Source: a virus
DNA: 64,000 nucleotides
Strand: one strand, 5' to 3'
IMG/VR virus record: IMGVR_UViG_3300033153_013649
Location: 95,838 to 159,837 of that record
Shown: piece by piece, positions 3,621-17,207 of the stretch
Numbering within the stretch: position 1 is the stretch's first letter
Layout: each line of letters opens with the position of its first letter
Program-made: the position numbers and the translations under genes
Notes under the pieces: generated by a model
Databases searched by the model: none
What the model was told of the DNA's origin: nothing
Seen by the model: the letters and a program-made list of their open reading frames with translations, nothing else

Positions 3621-4028
3621 ATGATAAAATATTTTAAAAAAAATCCTCATATTCTTAAAGCGATAAATATTTTAGAAATAAATTATAGAGCTGGATCTGA
3701 TATTTTATTTGGTATAAATAAATTCAAAGAATTATTTATTAATATTCAAAAGGAAGGAATAAAATATCCTATAATTTGTGTTCTAGATATTAATAAAGAT
3801 TTTAAAATAAGATTTGGTAATAGAAGAGTAATTATAGCAAGACTTCTAAGAATTAAAGAAGTTCCAGTTCTTTTATATTATAATAAAAAAGAAAAGGGAA
3901 TTCTGCCTATTGATAATATAAAAGGGAGGACTGTTACTAAAGAAGAATTATGTATGTTCTTTGAAAACGATAAAAATATTCCTGGACTAAAATATCTTTT
4001 GGAGATTTTTAATGATAGTATATGCTGA
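3621..4028 (+). CDS. ParB/Srx-like domain protein (start moved out of tRNA-Asn)
   Basis: L..NIQKEGIKYPI...IRFGNRRVIIARLL.IKEVPV. Confidence 0.7.
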   Translation: MIKYFKKNPHILKAINILEINYRAGSDILFGINKFKELFINIQKEGIKYPIICVLDINKDFKIRFGNRRVIIARLLRIKEVPVLLYYNKKEKGILPIDNIKGRTVTKEELCMFFENDKNIPGLKYLLEIFNDSIC

Positions 4029-4497
4029 ACCGGAAGTTAAAGAAGTGATATTAAGATTTTCTTTTAAAAAAGAGAATTATAATAAAACTCAAACTCTTGA
4101 TATAGAAATAAAGAATTATAAAAAGTTAAAAAGTAATATTATAAAATACGGAATAGTTCATCCTTTAATTGGTAATAGTTTATATAAAAATAATAGAAAT
4201 TATCCTTATGTTATAAAATATGGAATTAGAAGATTTCATATTGCAAAAGAACTCGGTATACAAAGAATTCCAATATTGATATATGATTTACCTATATTAG
4301 AAGAATCCAAGAAGATAAATTGTAAATATAAATATAAAATCAATAATATGGAAGATTTATCAAAGTTATTTAAAGCTCATATTTCTAATTATCAAGTTCC
4401 AGATAATCTTATTACTCCAGGGTATGAAAATATTCCAGCAGGATTAAAAATTTTTATTAATTTATATAATACTTATCAAGAGGATTTATTCAAATGA
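4012..4497 (+). CDS. ParB/Srx-like domain protein (MIVYAEP family)
   Basis: L..NIIKYGIVHPLIG...YGIRRFHIAKELGIQRIP. Confidence 0.7.
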   Translation: MIVYAEPEVKEVILRFSFKKENYNKTQTLDIEIKNYKKLKSNIIKYGIVHPLIGNSLYKNNRNYPYVIKYGIRRFHIAKELGIQRIPILIYDLPILEESKKINCKYKYKINNMEDLSKLFKAHISNYQVPDNLITPGYENIPAGLKIFINLYNTYQEDLFK

Positions 4498-4952
4498 TAG
4501 TATACGCTGAACCAGATCCTTGGAAAGCTCAACCTAAAGATATATTTCGAAAAGATTTTAATATCGGTGGTCCGACAATGACTTCGAAAGAAGGATTTCA
4601 GAAATTAGAAAATAATATCAGAGAAAATAGAATGTTTCATCCTTTGATAGGAATAGCTTTACAAAATTGTCCATGGATTATTCAAATGGGAAATAGAAGA
4701 CTACTGATCGCTCGAAGATTAAAAATGGAAAAAGTTCCGATGATTATATATAGCCTTCCCCCTCTTGTACATCCTCGAGTGCATCCAAAACCAGGAACTT
4801 ATATAAAAAGAATTAAAGATTTTGAAGAAATTACAGCTTTGTTTTGTAAGGAAGGATTAGATTTTCCCGAAGAGAGTCGACGCAGAGACGGAGTCCCGCA
4901 TGGATTACAATTAATGAAAGATTTATTTAGAAAATGTGTTGACTTTGATTAA
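4494..4952 (+). CDS. ParB/Srx-like domain protein (MIVYAEP family)
   Basis: LENNIREN.MFHPLIG...MGNRRLLIARRLKMEKVP. Confidence 0.7.
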   Translation: MIVYAEPDPWKAQPKDIFRKDFNIGGPTMTSKEGFQKLENNIRENRMFHPLIGIALQNCPWIIQMGNRRLLIARRLKMEKVPMIIYSLPPLVHPRVHPKPGTYIKRIKDFEEITALFCKEGLDFPEESRRRDGVPHGLQLMKDLFRKCVDFD

Positions 4953-8304: not shown

Positions 8305-8760
8305 ATGATAGTATATGCAGAACCAAAAACAAATCAAGTTCAGCCAAAATTTTCTTTAATTGATAAACAACGAGAATTTTATAATAAAAGAATCTTAACT
8401 AATAAAGGATATCCAGCATTAAAAGAAGATATTAAAAAAAATGGAATAGTTCATCCTTTAATTGGTAATAGTTGGAAGGGTTTTCCTTATACTGTTAAAA
8501 TTGGTTTAAGACGATTTTGGGCAGCAAGAGAACTAGGTATAGAAAGAATTCCGATATTAATATATGATTTACCGATATATACTTGGATTCCCGAATTTAA
8601 AGTTAATTGTGAATATAAATATAGATTAAAAAATATGGAAGATATATATGAATTATTCAAAGCTGTTGGAAAAAATTATCCAAAAGAAGATTTAATACCG
8701 GCCGGACAAAAATATTTTGTAAATTTATACGGTCAACATGGAATGAATATATTTAGATGA
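8305..8760 (+). CDS. ParB/Srx-like domain protein (MIVYAEP family)
   Basis: Close paralog of 4012..4497 (GIVHPLIGNS, RIPILIYDLPI, NCEYKY). Confidence 0.75.
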   Translation: MIVYAEPKTNQVQPKFSLIDKQREFYNKRILTNKGYPALKEDIKKNGIVHPLIGNSWKGFPYTVKIGLRRFWAARELGIERIPILIYDLPIYTWIPEFKVNCEYKYRLKNMEDIYELFKAVGKNYPKEDLIPAGQKYFVNLYGQHGMNIFR

Positions 8761-8770
8761 AAATAAAAAA

Positions 8771-8844
8771 AACCTTGGTCCAATTGGAAAAGACAGCAGA
8801 TTAAAACTCTGTAAGTTATAGAGGTTCAAATCTCTTCAAAGATA
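8771..8844 (+). pseudogene. Decayed tRNA-like sequence
   Basis: GTC-CAATTGGAAAA-GAC D-arm, GCAGA/TCTGT stem and GGTTCAAATC present; acceptor stem mismatched. Confidence 0.45.
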
Positions 8845-8859
8845 CTAAACTAATAAAAT

Positions 8860-8933
8860 ACTCCTGTACCAGAATTGGGATATGGGCTGGATTTAGATTC
8901 CAGAGTTTATGGGTTCGATTCCCATCAGGAGTA
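8860..8933 (+). tRNA. tRNA with TAG (Leu) anticodon but short variable loop
   Basis: ACTCCTG/CAGGAGT; CTGGA-TTTAGAT-TCCAG; 5-nt variable loop AGTTT. Confidence 0.8.
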
Positions 8934-8959
8934 CTCCTATAAAAAGAAAGGAAAAGGAT

Positions 8960-9565
8960 ATCATAAAAGATTATTTTTTAATCGGTCATCCGAGGTCTGG
9001 AAACGGTTTAATTAGAAATACTTTACAAGAAAATTTTCCAGAATTAAACTTTGTTCATTTTTCTCATTTAATTTTTACGCCAAGAAAAGATTTGAAATAT
9101 GTTTTTATTCAAAGACAGTTTGAATCTGTTTTGAATTCAATGTATAATATGTGGATTAATGATTTTCCTAAGAAATATATGAGCTTAGATGATTTTAGAA
9201 ATATTAAATATTCTAAACTTCCTTTTGATCCAAAAGTGCAAAGAAAAGCTAAATATAATGATAAAGGAAACAAAGTAGAAATAAGAAATTCTCAATTTGG
9301 CTGGCAATGGCTAATAAGAATAAACAGAACCCCTCGAGAATGGTATGATTATTATAATAATTATTGGCATCAACAAATCAATATGAATACTTCATTTATT
9401 CATCCAGTATTATATGAACAATTAATAGATCCAAAACTATTCCGTGAAATCATGGATAAGCTTTCAATATTTTTAATACATAAAACAAAAAGTACGTATG
9501 CTTGGTCGCAAATTACAGATAAAAGAATTGGAATATATCCGATAAATTATTCAGATAAAATTTAA
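8960..9565 (+). CDS. Sulfotransferase-like protein (no ATG outside the tRNA; probable ATC/ATA start)
   Basis: GHPRSGN resembles the 5'-PAPS loop; R......SMY 3'-phosphate-binding motif; V.YEQL. Confidence 0.6.
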   Translation: MIKDYFLIGHPRSGNGLIRNTLQENFPELNFVHFSHLIFTPRKDLKYVFIQRQFESVLNSMYNMWINDFPKKYMSLDDFRNIKYSKLPFDPKVQRKAKYNDKGNKVEIRNSQFGWQWLIRINRTPREWYDYYNNYWHQQINMNTSFIHPVLYEQLIDPKLFREIMDKLSIFLIHKTKSTYAWSQITDKRIGIYPINYSDKI

Positions 9566-9581
9566 ATTTTGTAAAAAGTTA

Positions 9582-9610
9582 TTGACAAATTCGATTTTAT
9601 TTAGTATATT
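9582..9610 (+). promoter_or_regulatory. Early promoter upstream of the RNase P S-domain-like RNA
   Basis: TTGACA-N17-TATATT with TTTAG. Confidence 0.8.
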
Positions 9611-9631
9611 ATAAATGAAAGGAACTTTAAA

Positions 9632-9810
9632 ACATCAAAGAATGGAGGGCTGAATTAAATCAGGCGAGGTAACTCGACGGAAGGTACAATAGAAACTATA
9701 CCGCCACGTTTGCCCACGTGGTAAGGGTGAAAAGAGAAGGCCTAAGAATCTTCTCTATTATCGGTAACGATTAATAGACGTAAACCTTCCCCCTCCCTTC
9801 TTTTTGATGT
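9632..9810 (+). ncRNA. Stand-alone RNase P RNA specificity (S) domain, type A-like, without catalytic domain
   Basis: P7-P14 recognisable in order, including ACGGAAGGTACAATAGAAA..ACCGCC, GGTAAGGGTGAAA and GTAAACC; closed by ACATCAAAGAA/TTCTTTTTGATGT. Confidence 0.8.
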
Positions 9811-9927
9811 AATTTCAAATAAGTTAAGAGAATTTGGACTAATGAATAAGAAGGCTAAAATAAATGTTATTTTTAATAGAATTTCGGGTACAAATCTCTT
9901 TAAAGATTTATATAAAAGAGAGGTAAC

Positions 9928-10299
9928 ATGAAAACATCAAAAAGATTTGGCGATTTATTTAGAGAATTACGCCTTAAAAACAGATATACACTAAGGGCAT
10001 ATTGCAGAAAGTTCAACCGTGATCCTGCTTATATTAGCAGAATTGAAAGAGGAATAACTCCCCCACCGGAAAACAGTGAAGAAATCGAAAATTATGCTAG
10101 ATCATTTAATTTAGAAGAAGGATCAAGACAGTGGATTGAATTTTATAATTTGGCTGTAGTTAGTAGAAAGAAAAAATCAGAACCCATATTATCCGAGAAA
10201 GAACTTGTTGGTAAATTACCATTATTTGTAACAACAACTAGCGGAAAGCCTCTTGATAATGATAAGTTAGATAAATTGATTGATATAATAAGAGATTAA
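9928..10299 (+). CDS. XRE-family helix-turn-helix regulator
   Basis: FGDLFRELRLK..YTLR......DPAYISRIERG..PPP. Confidence 0.85.
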   Translation: MKTSKRFGDLFRELRLKNRYTLRAYCRKFNRDPAYISRIERGITPPPENSEEIENYARSFNLEEGSRQWIEFYNLAVVSRKKKSEPILSEKELVGKLPLFVTTTSGKPLDNDKLDKLIDIIRD

Positions 10300-10307
10300 A
10301 TATTAAC

Positions 10308-10386
10308 GGGGCACAGGACTGCTAGGGGTGGTCGTCTCATTTGCGATGAGAAAAATTTCAGGTGGGTTCGAATCCCACGTGCTCCA
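10308..10386 (+). tRNA. tRNA-Ala(TGC)
   Basis: G3:U70 pair in GGGGCAC/GTGCTCC; TCTCA-TTTGCGA-TGAGA. Confidence 0.9.
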
Positions 10387-10436
10387 CAGATGGAAATTAT
10401 AGATCAGAAAAAAGAAAGAATAAAAAGGAAAAACTT

Positions 10437-10781
10437 ATGATTGAATTCAAAAATGAAATTGGGCTTTTAAAATCTATAAAAAAATCTCTGCAAGAATTTC
10501 AGGAGGAAAATAAAAGTCATGAATATTCTCATGAAAAAAAAGAAGAGAAAACGGAAAATTATTTGGATGAAATGATACTTTATGCATTTCGATATTGTCT
10601 CGGAAGGTCAAGTTATGCAGTTGGAATTTGTATCGAGTATCTTATTGATAATTGGGATAAGATCTCAAAGAAAAATAAGGCATTGATTCATAAAGAAATT
10701 AATCAAGCAATTGCTGATAATGATGCTGGTTGGGGATGTGATATTGAAGCATGGAAAAAGATCTTAAAACTTGAAAAGTAG
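10437..10781 (+). CDS. Phage hypothetical protein (start moved out of tRNA-Ala)
   Basis: AFRYCLGRSSY...CD...W motif; AAGGA RBS. Confidence 0.65.
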   Translation: MIEFKNEIGLLKSIKKSLQEFQEENKSHEYSHEKKEEKTENYLDEMILYAFRYCLGRSSYAVGICIEYLIDNWDKISKKNKALIHKEINQAIADNDAGWGCDIEAWKKILKLEK

Positions 10782-10871
10782 GAATCATATTTTAGATTCT
10801 AGATTGAAATTCTGGGAATTAGAGATAAGATTCAATTCGGTGGTATTACTAAAGAGAAAAAGGATTATATT

Positions 10872-11189
10872 ATGCTACCAAAATTAAAAAAAATCGATTT
10901 ATCGAAAAGATACCATGGCCCAAAAGATGTTAAGATTGGATGTGGAAAGCGACATGATGATATAAAGCCGAGTATTTTTACTCAATATTTAGCTAAAATT
11001 AATGGGTTTTGGCACGTTGTAAACTTTTCTGAACAATGGCATGGATTGATAGCTAAGGAGAATAATGATCGGCGGTTTGATTTAGATTCGGGGCGGCGGT
11101 TTGATTTAGATTCGGGGCAGAAAAACGATGGATCTGATTGGGAAGAATTATATGAAATTATAGATCAGAAAGGAGAAGAAAATGACTAG
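10872..11189 (+). CDS. Hypothetical protein with an internal 8-aa duplication
   Basis: RRFDLDSG twice. Confidence 0.6.
   Translation: MLPKLKKIDLSKRYHGPKDVKIGCGKRHDDIKPSIFTQYLAKINGFWHVVNFSEQWHGLIAKENNDRRFDLDSGRRFDLDSGQKNDGSDWEELYEIIDQKGEEND
11070..11117 (+). repeat. Perfect 24-bp tandem duplication
   Basis: CGGCGGTTTGATTTAGATTCGGGG twice. Confidence 0.95.
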
Positions 11190-11297
11190 TCCTTATGCAA
11201 AGAAACATTATCCGAAAAAGAAAAAACTTGGAAGAAAAAGTTTTAGGTATCTTCAATTACACGGAGAAAAAGCAAAGAAAAAATAATAAAAGAAATA

Positions 11298-11546
11298 TTG
11301 AAGAAGTTATCATTTTTTGAAATATTTATAACTTTTATTTTAGTATTTATATTTATTAAATTGGATACTTATAATTTCTATAAGGAATATTATGAAAAAT
11401 ATAAGAAAAGAAAAGATGTTGAACAAATTGAAGAAAAGCTGGAATTAAAGGTTTATGAATTTTATGATATATCTGTTGATATGGATTTAAGAGTTACCTT
11501 TTTAGGTGATTCTTTACTTGCAATTGATACTTTGAAAATTTATTAG
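11298..11546 (+). CDS. Small protein with N-terminal membrane anchor
   Basis: FFEIFITFILVFIFI. Confidence 0.55.
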   Translation: MKKLSFFEIFITFILVFIFIKLDTYNFYKEYYEKYKKRKDVEQIEEKLELKVYEFYDISVDMDLRVTFLGDSLLAIDTLKIY

Positions 11547-11559
11547 AATAAGAAATTTT

Positions 11560-11635
11560 GCGGGATAGGCTGAAAAGGATTAGGCGCCTGGCTTCCAACC
11601 AGGAATATTAATCGGTTCGATTCCGATATCCCGCT
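11560..11635 (+). tRNA. tRNA-Gly(TCC)
   Basis: GCGGGAT/ATCCCGC; CCTGG-CTTCCAA-CCAGG. Confidence 0.9.
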
Positions 11636-11654
11636 CTAAAATAATTATATAAAA

Positions 11655-12266
11655 ATGGAGATAATAAATAAAAGAGTACTTTTGATAAATATTTCTTATG
11701 AACCAATTACTGTAATTAATGTAGCAAGATCGATTCTTCTTATTTATAAAGGAAAAGCTCAAATAATTGAACATGAAGAAGAAATCAAACTTAGATCTAG
11801 TGGAAGATTTAATCCAAAAACAAATAAAAGAGAAAATTGGGAAATCAACTGTCCTACAGTTTTAAGATTAAAGAAATATGTTAAAGTTCCGAGAAGAAAT
11901 TTATTACCAGTTAAAAGTAATATTTGCCAAAGAGACAGATATATCTGTCAATATTGTGGGATTGAACTCAATTTTATAGATCTTACTTTAGATCATGTTA
12001 TTCCTTATAGTAAAGGAGGGAAAAGTACTTGGGAAAATTTAGTTGCTTCTTGTAGTAGATGTAATAATAAAAAAGGGGATAGAACTCCAAAACAAGCGGG
12101 AATGAAATTACTTTCTAAACCGAAAAAACCCCATGCGTTTCAAACTTTGAGATTTTATATCAAGACAATTAGAAGTCCCTGGAAACCATATTTATTTATG
12201 GAATCCTTTCCTGTTGAAAACACAGTATCTCAAGAAGATATTGCTATTGTAGAACGTTCTTTATAA
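11655..12266 (+). CDS. HNH endonuclease (McrA-like)
   Basis: RD..CQYCG...LTLDHVIP.SKGG..TWENLV.SC..CN..KG. Confidence 0.9.
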   Translation: MEIINKRVLLINISYEPITVINVARSILLIYKGKAQIIEHEEEIKLRSSGRFNPKTNKRENWEINCPTVLRLKKYVKVPRRNLLPVKSNICQRDRYICQYCGIELNFIDLTLDHVIPYSKGGKSTWENLVASCSRCNNKKGDRTPKQAGMKLLSKPKKPHAFQTLRFYIKTIRSPWKPYLFMESFPVENTVSQEDIAIVERSL

Positions 12267-12362
12267 GAGGGGTGGTGGAGTCTGGATTAATCACACTGGT
12301 CTTGAAAACCAGTAAATGTTGTAAAAGCATCATTTCGTGGGTTCAAATCCCACCCCCCTCTG
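12266..12362 (+). tRNA. tRNA-Ser(TGA)
   Basis: CTGGT-CTTGAAA-ACCAG; long variable arm. Confidence 0.85.
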
Positions 12363-12374
12363 CAAAATTAATCT

Positions 12375-12382
12375 TATAAATA
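12375..12382 (+). promoter_or_regulatory. T4-type late promoter TATAAATA (further intergenic copies at 24017, 26558, 40061, 51547, 57304)
   Basis: Exact gp55 consensus just upstream of gene starts; the AT-rich background lowers specificity. Confidence 0.55.
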
Positions 12383-12387
12383 GTTTT

Positions 12388-13005
12388 ATGAATGTTGAAA
12401 TAGTTGAAAAGAAAATAGACAAAAACAATTTAAGAAAAAATTGGGCAATTTGTTCATTCTATACCCCTGAATATTCAAAAGTAATATTAAATCTTATTGA
12501 TTCTATTCAAAATTTAAATTTAAATTACATAATTCATCAAGTTAGATTATCCAATAATTGGACAGCTAATACTCATTATAAACCCTTCTTTCTATTAGAT
12601 GTATTAAACGAACATCCAGAGTTGAAAGCAGTTGTTTGGGTAGATGCAGATGCAGTAATTATTCGGTATCCAAAACTTTTTGATAATTTAGAATGTGATT
12701 TTGCAGCTCATATTCATAAAACAAAGAATCAATTACTTTCTGGAACTCTATTTTTCAAAAACAACAATTCTGCTAAAACTCTTTTACGAATGTGGATAAA
12801 AGAATCGAGTAACAGACGAGGCCAATGGGATCAAAAAATATTACAAGAGACTAAAAATCAATGGAAAGGAAATTTCTATAATCTTCCCCCTCAATATTGT
12901 TTAGTTTTTGATAATATGAAACAATGGGGACCTCCGGTTATAGAACATTATCAATTTTCTAGAAAAATACGAAGAAAAGAAGTTACGATAAGGTCAGGAA
13001 TTTGA
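12388..13005 (+). CDS. GT-A fold glycosyltransferase (nucleotide-diphospho-sugar transferase-like)
   Basis: KP.FLL...VVWVDADA (DxD); SGTLFF; WDQ; LP..Y...FD; IEHYQ. Confidence 0.8.
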   Translation: MNVEIVEKKIDKNNLRKNWAICSFYTPEYSKVILNLIDSIQNLNLNYIIHQVRLSNNWTANTHYKPFFLLDVLNEHPELKAVVWVDADAVIIRYPKLFDNLECDFAAHIHKTKNQLLSGTLFFKNNNSAKTLLRMWIKESSNRRGQWDQKILQETKNQWKGNFYNLPPQYCLVFDNMKQWGPPVIEHYQFSRKIRRKEVTIRSGI

Positions 13006-17083: not shown

Positions 17084-17207
17084 ATTATTTAGGGATCCAC
17101 GGCCAAGCAAAATTAGATACGCACTTGGGTATTCATTAATAAAGCTTTATTTCGAATACGTAGGATGCTAACAGGTCGGTGAAAGACCGGCTGGATTCTT
17201 AAATAAT
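17084..17207 (+). ncRNA. Unassigned multi-branch structured RNA
   Basis: 16-bp closing stem ATTATTTAGGGATCCA/TGGATTCTTAAATAAT enclosing 3-4 hairpins. Confidence 0.6.

Follow-up and report, generated by a model that had tools for sequence, protein, structure and literature searches.

A phage-borne RNase P specificity domain without a catalytic domain: a candidate tRNA-elbow-binding RNA

An S-domain homologue and its setting

We analysed a 64,000-nucleotide stretch of viral DNA (hereafter the window; bases 95,838 to 159,837 of the 159,837-bp virus record IMGVR_UViG_3300033153_013649, which has direct terminal repeats and is rated 100% complete), in which an element of about 180 nucleotides (nt) lies between a sigma-70-type promoter at 9582 and the gene of a helix-turn-helix (HTH) protein (Table 1). 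Infernal cmscan in local mode aligned positions 9637–9795 (+) with columns 61–218 of the 367 columns of RF00010 (RNaseP_bact_a), at a score of 72.6 bits and an E value of 4.3e-22. These columns span J5/7 to the 3' strand of P7, that is, the entire specificity domain (S-domain) of type-A RNase P RNA and nothing beyond, and the alignment stops before the 3' spacer at 9811–9927. A preliminary description, made from the nucleotide sequence alone, had anticipated that a local-mode covariance model should match the P7–P14 columns only, and the alignment obtained is of exactly this kind. The match is far beyond chance; the element is a homologue of the bacterial type-A RNase P S-domain. At the Rfam gathering threshold the window yields tRNAs only, and the S-domain match appears at an E-value threshold, its score being lower than the RF00010 gathering threshold of 100 bits. 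Because the catalytic domain (C-domain) is missing, the element falls outside RF00010 as an enzyme family. No open reading frame (ORF) of at least 25 aa occurs on either strand in 9566–9841, in agreement with the earlier designation of the ~180-nt element as non-coding.

Table 1 Features of the S-domain element and its surroundings (window coordinates).
Feature	Position	Strand	Details
Sigma-70-type promoter	9582–9610	+	TTGACA 9582–9587, 17-nt spacer, TATATT 9605–9610; predicted start near 9617
Closing clamp, 5' strand	9632–9642	+	P5 position; 11 standard pairs with 9798–9810
P7	9644–9649 / 9791–9796	+	6 standard pairs
P8 hairpin	9650–9663	+	4 standard pairs
P9 hairpin	9664–9678	+	GUAA loop, bulged A9677, 5 standard pairs
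5' strands of P10 and P11, then J11/12 (first T-loop region)	9679–9700	+	
P12 hairpin	9701–9726	+	9 standard pairs
J12/13, second T-loop region	up to 9733, after P12	+	GGUAAGGGUGAAAA
P13	9734–9755	+	6 standard pairs
P14	9756–9776	+	Loop GGUAAC, 8 standard pairs
J14/11, then 3' strands of P11, P10 and P7	9777–9796	+	Conserved CGUAAAC with bulged AA; 3-nt insert CUU
Closing clamp, 3' strand	9798–9810	+	U-rich (UUCUUUUUGAUGU), directly after GC-rich P7
AT-rich spacer	9811–9927	+	Minimum free energy −13.7 kcal/mol, z +0.20, no significant structure
XRE-type HTH protein gene, 123 aa	9928–10299	+	HTH_31, E 4.4e-07; possibly same transcript
tRNA-Ala(UGC), next gene of the tRNA cluster	10308–10387	+	

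The pairs implied by the covariance-model alignment were written out and checked. All the helices named in the preliminary description, together with its promoter and closing helix, were recovered where it had placed them. All 44 pairs listed for the homologous register are standard (including 2 in P10 and 4 in P11), and the closing clamp adds a further 11; among the model pairs outside these 44, three are lost to helix-end deletions and two are non-standard in the element. The clamp comprises 7 bp, a 2-nt bulge and 4 bp, and stands in place of J5/7 and the P6 strand of the full-length RNA. Folding of the 196-nt segment 9620–9815 gave a minimum free energy (MFE) of −62.6 kcal/mol, compared with −42.2 kcal/mol for shuffled sequences (z −4.66), and none of the 200 shuffles folded as well. 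Paired positions of the element have a GC content of 54% and unpaired ones of 28%, the latter close to the genome background of ~29%. Such a concentration of GC in the stems is the pattern expected from selection for helix stability where the genome is AT-rich. Furthermore, the helices diverge from the family consensus by paired changes, and the junctions are kept.

The residues that contact tRNA were mapped through alignment to E. coli rnpB, with the T-stem-loop site and stacking-platform residues taken from PMC11143913. At the positions of E. coli A118, A130, A180, A181 and A233 the element always has A (A9677, A9689, A9730, A9731 and A9783, respectively), and the only changed residue of the T-loop site is E. 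coli C131, which is U9690 in the element; gut Alphaproteobacteria, SAR86 and others show the same C-to-U change in full-length RNase P RNAs whose P4 is intact. J11/12 agrees with the consensus at 9 of 12 positions, and both junction sequences are conserved with the RNase P version. Similarly, L14 (GGUAAC) is identical to the family consensus, and the L13 core UAAGA and the GNRA loop of L9 are kept; L8, by contrast, is divergent, and P8 has one pair fewer than in the family.

The promoter at 9582 agrees with the sigma-70 consensus at 11 of 12 positions and is the best site within 8700–12500, confirming that a promoter precedes the element. It belongs to a family (GTTGACAAA, ~11 nt, TTTAGTATATTATA) with 21 plus-strand copies, this one among them, and one minus-strand copy genome-wide; the copies in the window lie at 2874, 9582, 16183, 31274, 31648, 33294, 44616 and 47333. 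Most of the other copies stand visibly upstream of a Shine–Dalgarno (SD) sequence and start codon, and the copy at 2874 lies ~220 nt before the first tRNA gene (3093). The consensus looks like the main early promoter class of the phage. The GC-enriched, ORF-free stretch starts ~20 nt after the promoter, leaving only ~15 nt between the predicted transcription start and the clamp.

The element sits within a cluster of 14 tRNA genes, as its earlier placement inside a tRNA island had implied. To judge from its proteins, the phage is a distant T4-type phage: its portal is ~30% identical to the T4 gp20-type portal of cultured T4-like coliphages, and a DNA polymerase of T4 type and a nuclease resembling gp46 are also encoded. 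Genes for an Rnl2-family RNA ligase and for a nucleotidyltransferase of the CCA-adding type lie elsewhere in the genome; with a ligase, a CCA enzyme and 14 tRNA genes, the phage therefore appears to invest in tRNA supply and repair. Upstream of the ligase gene we observed an oversized tRNA-like sequence at C1:82,880–83,020 (+) (L169:880–1020), in which the acceptor stem has 7 bp (GAACGAG/CUCGUUC) and a terminal T-arm is accompanied by another T-arm-like hairpin inside the sequence (GGGGUUCGACUCCCC); it is called by neither ARAGORN nor Rfam. Within the window, the tRNA-Ser(UGA) gene at 12266–12361 (+) scored 46.9 bits on the tRNA-Sec model (gathering threshold 47) in a permissive scan, a near-match that most likely reflects only its long variable arm. 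Paralogous small ParB_N-like proteins starting with MIVYAEP (window positions 4012–4952 and 8305–8760; repeat families D3, D4, D6, D9 and D10; ParB_N E 7e-08) are repeated through the tRNA island.

Searches for a catalytic half and for relatives

The preliminary description had proposed searching the rest of the genome for a C-domain-only RNA, and none was found by Infernal, nhmmer or motif scan. In the complete genome, the S-domain match is the sole match to RF00010 at E values up to 10, and a permissive cmscan of the whole tRNA island and of the GC-rich region at 82–87 kb returned no further RNase P match. Profiles for P4/CR-I and for CR-IV/V with the P4 3' strand, built from 51–53 RNase P RNAs, reached at best 4.1 and 4.0 bits, respectively, in nhmmer searches of the genome, with scattered matches; a phage mini RNase P, searched with them as a control, reached 11.1 and 15.2 bits. 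The P4 motifs (GAGGAAAGUCC and ACAGAA..CGGCUUA) occur in the window at chance frequency only and never near the element, in keeping with the initial observation that the flanks lack them. A permissive scan for P4 pairing returned 125 AT-rich matches, which we dismissed as chance, and no RnpA gene was found in the genome. Set against the domain limits of RF00010, these results indicate that the catalytic domain is cut away exactly at the boundary between S- and C-domain, with the 11-bp clamp in its place.

Two further structured RNA candidates were seen in the genome. One is an ORF-free RNA candidate of ~250 nt at C1:85,985–86,240 (+) (L169:3985–4240), just upstream of the CCA-adding enzyme gene, with a GC content of ~53%, its own TTGACA promoter, and a closing helix of ~20 bp followed by U7 (MFE −88.4 kcal/mol, z −3.76). 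We considered it as a hidden C-domain and rejected it, having found no Rfam match at E 10 on 321 nt and no P4-like pairing by eye. The other is a multi-branch RNA candidate of ~120 nt at window positions 17084–17207 (+), right after a pair of tRNA-Gln genes, closed by a long helix and containing a GGUC-GGUGAAA-GACC hairpin; Rfam gave no match at E values up to 5, and, considered likewise as a C-domain, the RNA showed no RNase P match.

We found no stand-alone S-domain RNA, natural or phage-borne, in the literature searched and no S-domain-only family in Rfam 15; the preliminary description likewise knew of no such family. By blastn, a homologue of the element was found neither among 50,697 phage records (cut-offs E 1e-3 and E 10) nor in E. 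coli genomes. Four junction patterns searched in IMG/VR gave no second S-domain-only RNA among the matches listed, which were full-length RNase P RNAs (at provirus/host borders and in jumbo phages) or chance coding matches; one junction pattern each in JGI metagenomes and in GTDB genomes gave matches of these same kinds and no S-domain-only RNA. RF00010 had no match in 34 T4-like IMG/VR records, the two nearest included. As a baseline, in one bacterial phylum a full-length RNase P match was obtained in 148 of 151 genomes and an S-domain-only match in 0 of 151. The ORF upstream of the element has no homologue, and none of the three homologues of the HTH gene found elsewhere stands beside an S-domain RNA. 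One of these homologues is carried by L134, a 68-kb phage contig of the P22-portal type, which also holds a match to the type II hammerhead ribozyme at 2412–2470 (−) (36.7 bits; gathering threshold 37).

The lineage itself is poorly sampled: only five relatives of the portal, at 43–49% identity, were found among 5.8 billion proteins, and the absence of homologues is weak evidence for that reason. The identity of the element to 49 sampled type-A S-domains is 45–60%; the best match, a metagenome-assembled genome (MAG) of SAR86, is at 60% too distant to be named as the donor. Bacterial RNase P RNA genes scored 163–356 bits, and the whole RNase P RNA in a phage record of 419,707 bp scored 148 bits. 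The low score of the element, similar to those of phage-borne copies, and its 45–60% identity point to a long residence in phages and away from a fresh capture. The phage record just mentioned (IMGVR_UViG_3300044557_000292), which is terminally repeated and 100% complete, carries its full-length, low-scoring RNase P RNA at 307574–307935 (−). Furthermore, RNase P RNA copies with the P4 variant GAGGAAAGUCG were seen in a 480,838-bp record (L177) and in a 45,912-bp contig (L183).

Weighing the explanations

We consider it fairly probable that the element is a real, selected non-coding RNA gene of ~180–195 nt, a stand-alone descendant of the S-domain that likely binds the elbow of tRNAs or tRNA-like RNAs. 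The RNA would be transcribed from one of the standard sigma-70-type promoters of the phage, either as a short transcript or as the structured 5' part of a longer one that reaches the HTH gene and tRNA-Ala, and most likely folds like an S-domain, because the helices, the docking loop L14 and the T-loop junctions with their tRNA-contacting residues are kept. In RNase P, the two interdigitated T-loops of the S-domain stack on the flat elbow formed by the D-loop and T-loop of tRNA (PMC4919913, PMC11143913). On this basis, the phage RNA would be an elbow binder without catalytic activity, which, once folded, would stack on the D-loop/T-loop elbow of tRNAs, pre-tRNAs or phage tRNA-like RNAs without cleaving them; removal of pre-tRNA 5' leaders is not expected of it, the catalytic core being absent.

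That the element is instead a relic, a functionless remnant left when an RNase P RNA gene, either taken from a host or once complete in the phage, lost its catalytic half, is in our judgement unlikely. Phages do carry RNase P RNA genes, full-length in the 419,707-bp record and reduced in the phage contig L163 described below, and the element is absent from the nearest relative and has no family that we could find, all of which would suit a relic. Against a relic stand a cut that coincides with the S/C boundary and is closed off by 11 new base pairs, 44 of 44 standard pairs, stems nearly twice as GC-rich as loops in a genome of ~29% GC, intact junction residues, and helices that vary by paired changes. 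A consensus phage promoter stands directly in front. At 45–60% identity, the element is no fresh insert from the sampled S-domains, and decay over such a distance should have broken the stems.

We also hold it to be improbable that the S-domain is a cis-acting leader, that is, a 5' untranslated sensor of the HTH mRNA (and of tRNA-Ala) that reads tRNA abundance or state in the manner of T-box Stem I, which has the same interdigitated T-loop device (PMC4919913). In favour of a leader, neither a terminator-like site nor a second plus-strand sigma-70 promoter was found in the spacer before the HTH start codon, 118 nt downstream, and the other promoter copies stand far closer to what they drive, mostly an SD sequence and start codon. 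The 118-nt spacer shows no structure beyond that of shuffles, and we saw no terminator/antiterminator pair, no specifier loop and no pairing that would sequester an SD sequence; moreover, no such RNA lies upstream of the three HTH-gene homologues found elsewhere. A short transcript might end at the element itself, where the U-rich 3' strand of the clamp, following the GC-rich P7, might act as a termination signal.

Very unlikely, in our estimation, is a two-piece RNase P, in which the S-domain would act in trans with a diverged phage C-domain RNA, or with one of other source, and restore measurement of the elbow. Such an arrangement works in vitro, where separately made S- and C-domain RNAs reconstitute activity (PMC6783828; PMC11143913), and C-domain-only RNAs are active but bind pre-tRNA less well (PMC5839562; PMC11143913); contig L163 shows that a phage RNase P RNA may lack the T-loop core. 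The GNRA loop of L9, which docks on P1 in the full-length RNA, is kept in the element, whereas P8 has one pair fewer and L8, the loop in contact with P4, is divergent. A partner is what the genome does not offer: three methods gave no C-domain signal in the complete sequence, the ~250-nt structured RNA at C1:85,985–86,240 has neither an Rfam match at E 10 nor P4-like pairing by eye, and the RNase P of the host already owns an S-domain. Finally, a complete but highly diverged RNase P RNA at 9610–9913 with a degenerate P4 is hardly credible. Its two points of support are the loose likeness of AAAGGAACUUU at 9618–9628 to a P4 5' strand (cf. GAGGAACUUCC in L163) and a possible partner for part of it in AAGUU at ~9822–9826 of the 3' flank, a 5-bp AU-rich complement of the kind that chance would supply at ~29% GC. 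The ~15 nt between predicted start and clamp leave no room for P1–P3, the 118-nt 3' flank is unstructured and has no CR-IV/V profile match, P15, P18 and any ACAGAA..CGGCUUA-like element are missing, and the Infernal alignment is not extended.

Several observations weigh against the reading of the element as a free, elbow-binding S-domain RNA. As no terminator-like site was found after it, the RNA could be part of a leader instead of standing free. Only this one example was found: our searches of IMG/VR, JGI metagenomes, GTDB genomes and cultured phages yielded no homologue, and therefore no covariation among orthologues can be called upon; the nearest relative, an 85-kb contig with a portal of 47% identity, shows synteny on either side but lacks the element and has a shorter variable region with two tRNA genes. 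An isolated S-domain is expected to bind tRNA less tightly than the whole ribozyme, because the contacts to the acceptor stem and 3' end are absent from it. The pairing at P10/P11 is a further point, since an alternative form competes with the predicted T-loop fold. The covariance model pairs P10/P11 canonically (GG/CC, then GUAC/GU..AC, with the AA bulge retained), and the CUU insert (9786–9788) also permits a continuous 7-bp helix, GGAAGGU (9679–9685) with ACCUUCC (9784–9790), which would alter the base of the T-loop platform. Nearest-neighbour energies prefer the 7-bp helix over canonical P10 and P11 (−61.6 vs −47.8 kcal/mol), a calculation that omits the tertiary T-loop structure and so cannot decide between the two forms. 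The suggestion in the preliminary description that the adenosines bulged at P10/P11 can be fully paired thus stands as an energetically preferred alternative, but not as the homologous pairing, in which the AA bulge is kept. The alternative pairing could even be a switch.

Taking these points together with the evidence for a selected S-domain RNA, we tentatively propose that half of an RNase P RNA has been turned into a free-standing, non-catalytic clamp on the tRNA elbow, which would hold, shield or hand over tRNAs during infection. The RNA would then be a trans-acting holder or shield of tRNAs, tied to the supply and repair set of the phage (14 tRNA genes, ligase and CCA enzyme), and of the uses conceivable for it, holding tRNAs with this set seems the most likely. 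The clamp perhaps works with the ligase and CCA enzyme, or against host defences that target tRNA. Inhibition of host RNase P is an unlikely role, because the phage needs that enzyme for its own 14 tRNA genes.

Comparison with known systems

RNase P RNA is among the best-studied ribozymes, and its domain modularity has been shown mainly by laboratory cutting. Were the specificity half alone encoded by a natural gene, the same separation would have taken place in evolution, and an elbow binder with no catalytic part would have been put to use. The closest relative of the phage RNA is the type-A S-domain itself (RF00010; E. coli M1 RNA nt ~85–240; T. maritima holoenzyme–tRNA complex PDB 3Q1Q, as cited in PMC4919913), with which it shares the helix order P7–P14, the T-loop junctions, L14 GGUAAC, the bulged A of P9, the AA bulge of P11 and the tRNA-contacting adenines. 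Unlike that domain, the phage element is AU-rich and phage-encoded, has no C-domain attached, and carries the clamp instead of J5/7 and the P6 strand. S- and C-domains of RNase P fold independently and reassemble in trans (PMC6783828, PMC11143913), and the isolated S-domains and two-piece ribozymes engineered on this principle (PMC6783828; PMC11143913) have the same domain limits as the phage element. These are laboratory constructs, whereas the phage element is a natural gene with its own promoter, and we found no C-domain to partner it.

The same T-loop device serves T-box Stem I and the L1 stalk without catalysis, and the three known instances of interdigitated T-loops arose independently (PMC4919913). 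Elbow stacking without catalysis is what we propose for the phage RNA, which differs from these two in being a true homologue of the RNase P version of the device. T-box Stem I furthermore acts in cis, as a leader equipped with specifier loop and antiterminator; neither of these was seen at the phage element, and no T-box was found among the Rfam matches of the element at E values up to 10. If our reading is correct, the phage RNA would add a fourth case to the natural uses of interdigitated T-loops, and no natural RNA before it would have consisted of an S-domain alone. A 2016 review proposed hunting for such elbow-binding RNAs in non-coding and viral transcriptomes (PMC4919913). A compact RNA of ~180 nt would also offer a means to study elbow recognition, control of the tRNA pool by phages and possible counters to host defences that target tRNA.

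Two further systems resemble the element in one respect each. The type T RNase P RNA of Pyrobaculum is without an S-domain, and the domains are thus separable in nature; there, the surviving half is catalytic and is still an enzyme, and the phage element is the other half. The tRNA cluster of phage T4 encodes small stable RNAs of unknown function, species 1 and 2 (rnaC and rnaD). Like the phage element, they are non-tRNA RNAs inside the tRNA cluster of a T4-type phage; we know of no relation between them and RNase P.

The phage mini RNase P RNAs provide the complementary case. At L163:604–910 (−) lies a 307-nt RNase P RNA (96.7 bits in global alignment to RF00010) with intact P4, P7–P9 and P15, in which 29 nt take the place of the P11–P14 core (91 model columns) and which has no P18; it adjoins four tRNA genes and an HNH ORF. 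L168:1094–1290 (−) is near-identical to it, with an internal deletion. A junction-pattern match in L163/L168, considered as a separate S-domain, proved to be a chance match inside the HNH ORF. These RNAs, like the element described here, are derived from RNase P, borne by phages and located among tRNA genes. They keep P4 and the catalytic core and delete P11–P14, whereas the element keeps P7–P14 and has no P4, and is thus the opposite half. Together, the catalytic-half RNAs and the S-domain element suggest that phages dismantle RNase P and reuse its pieces.

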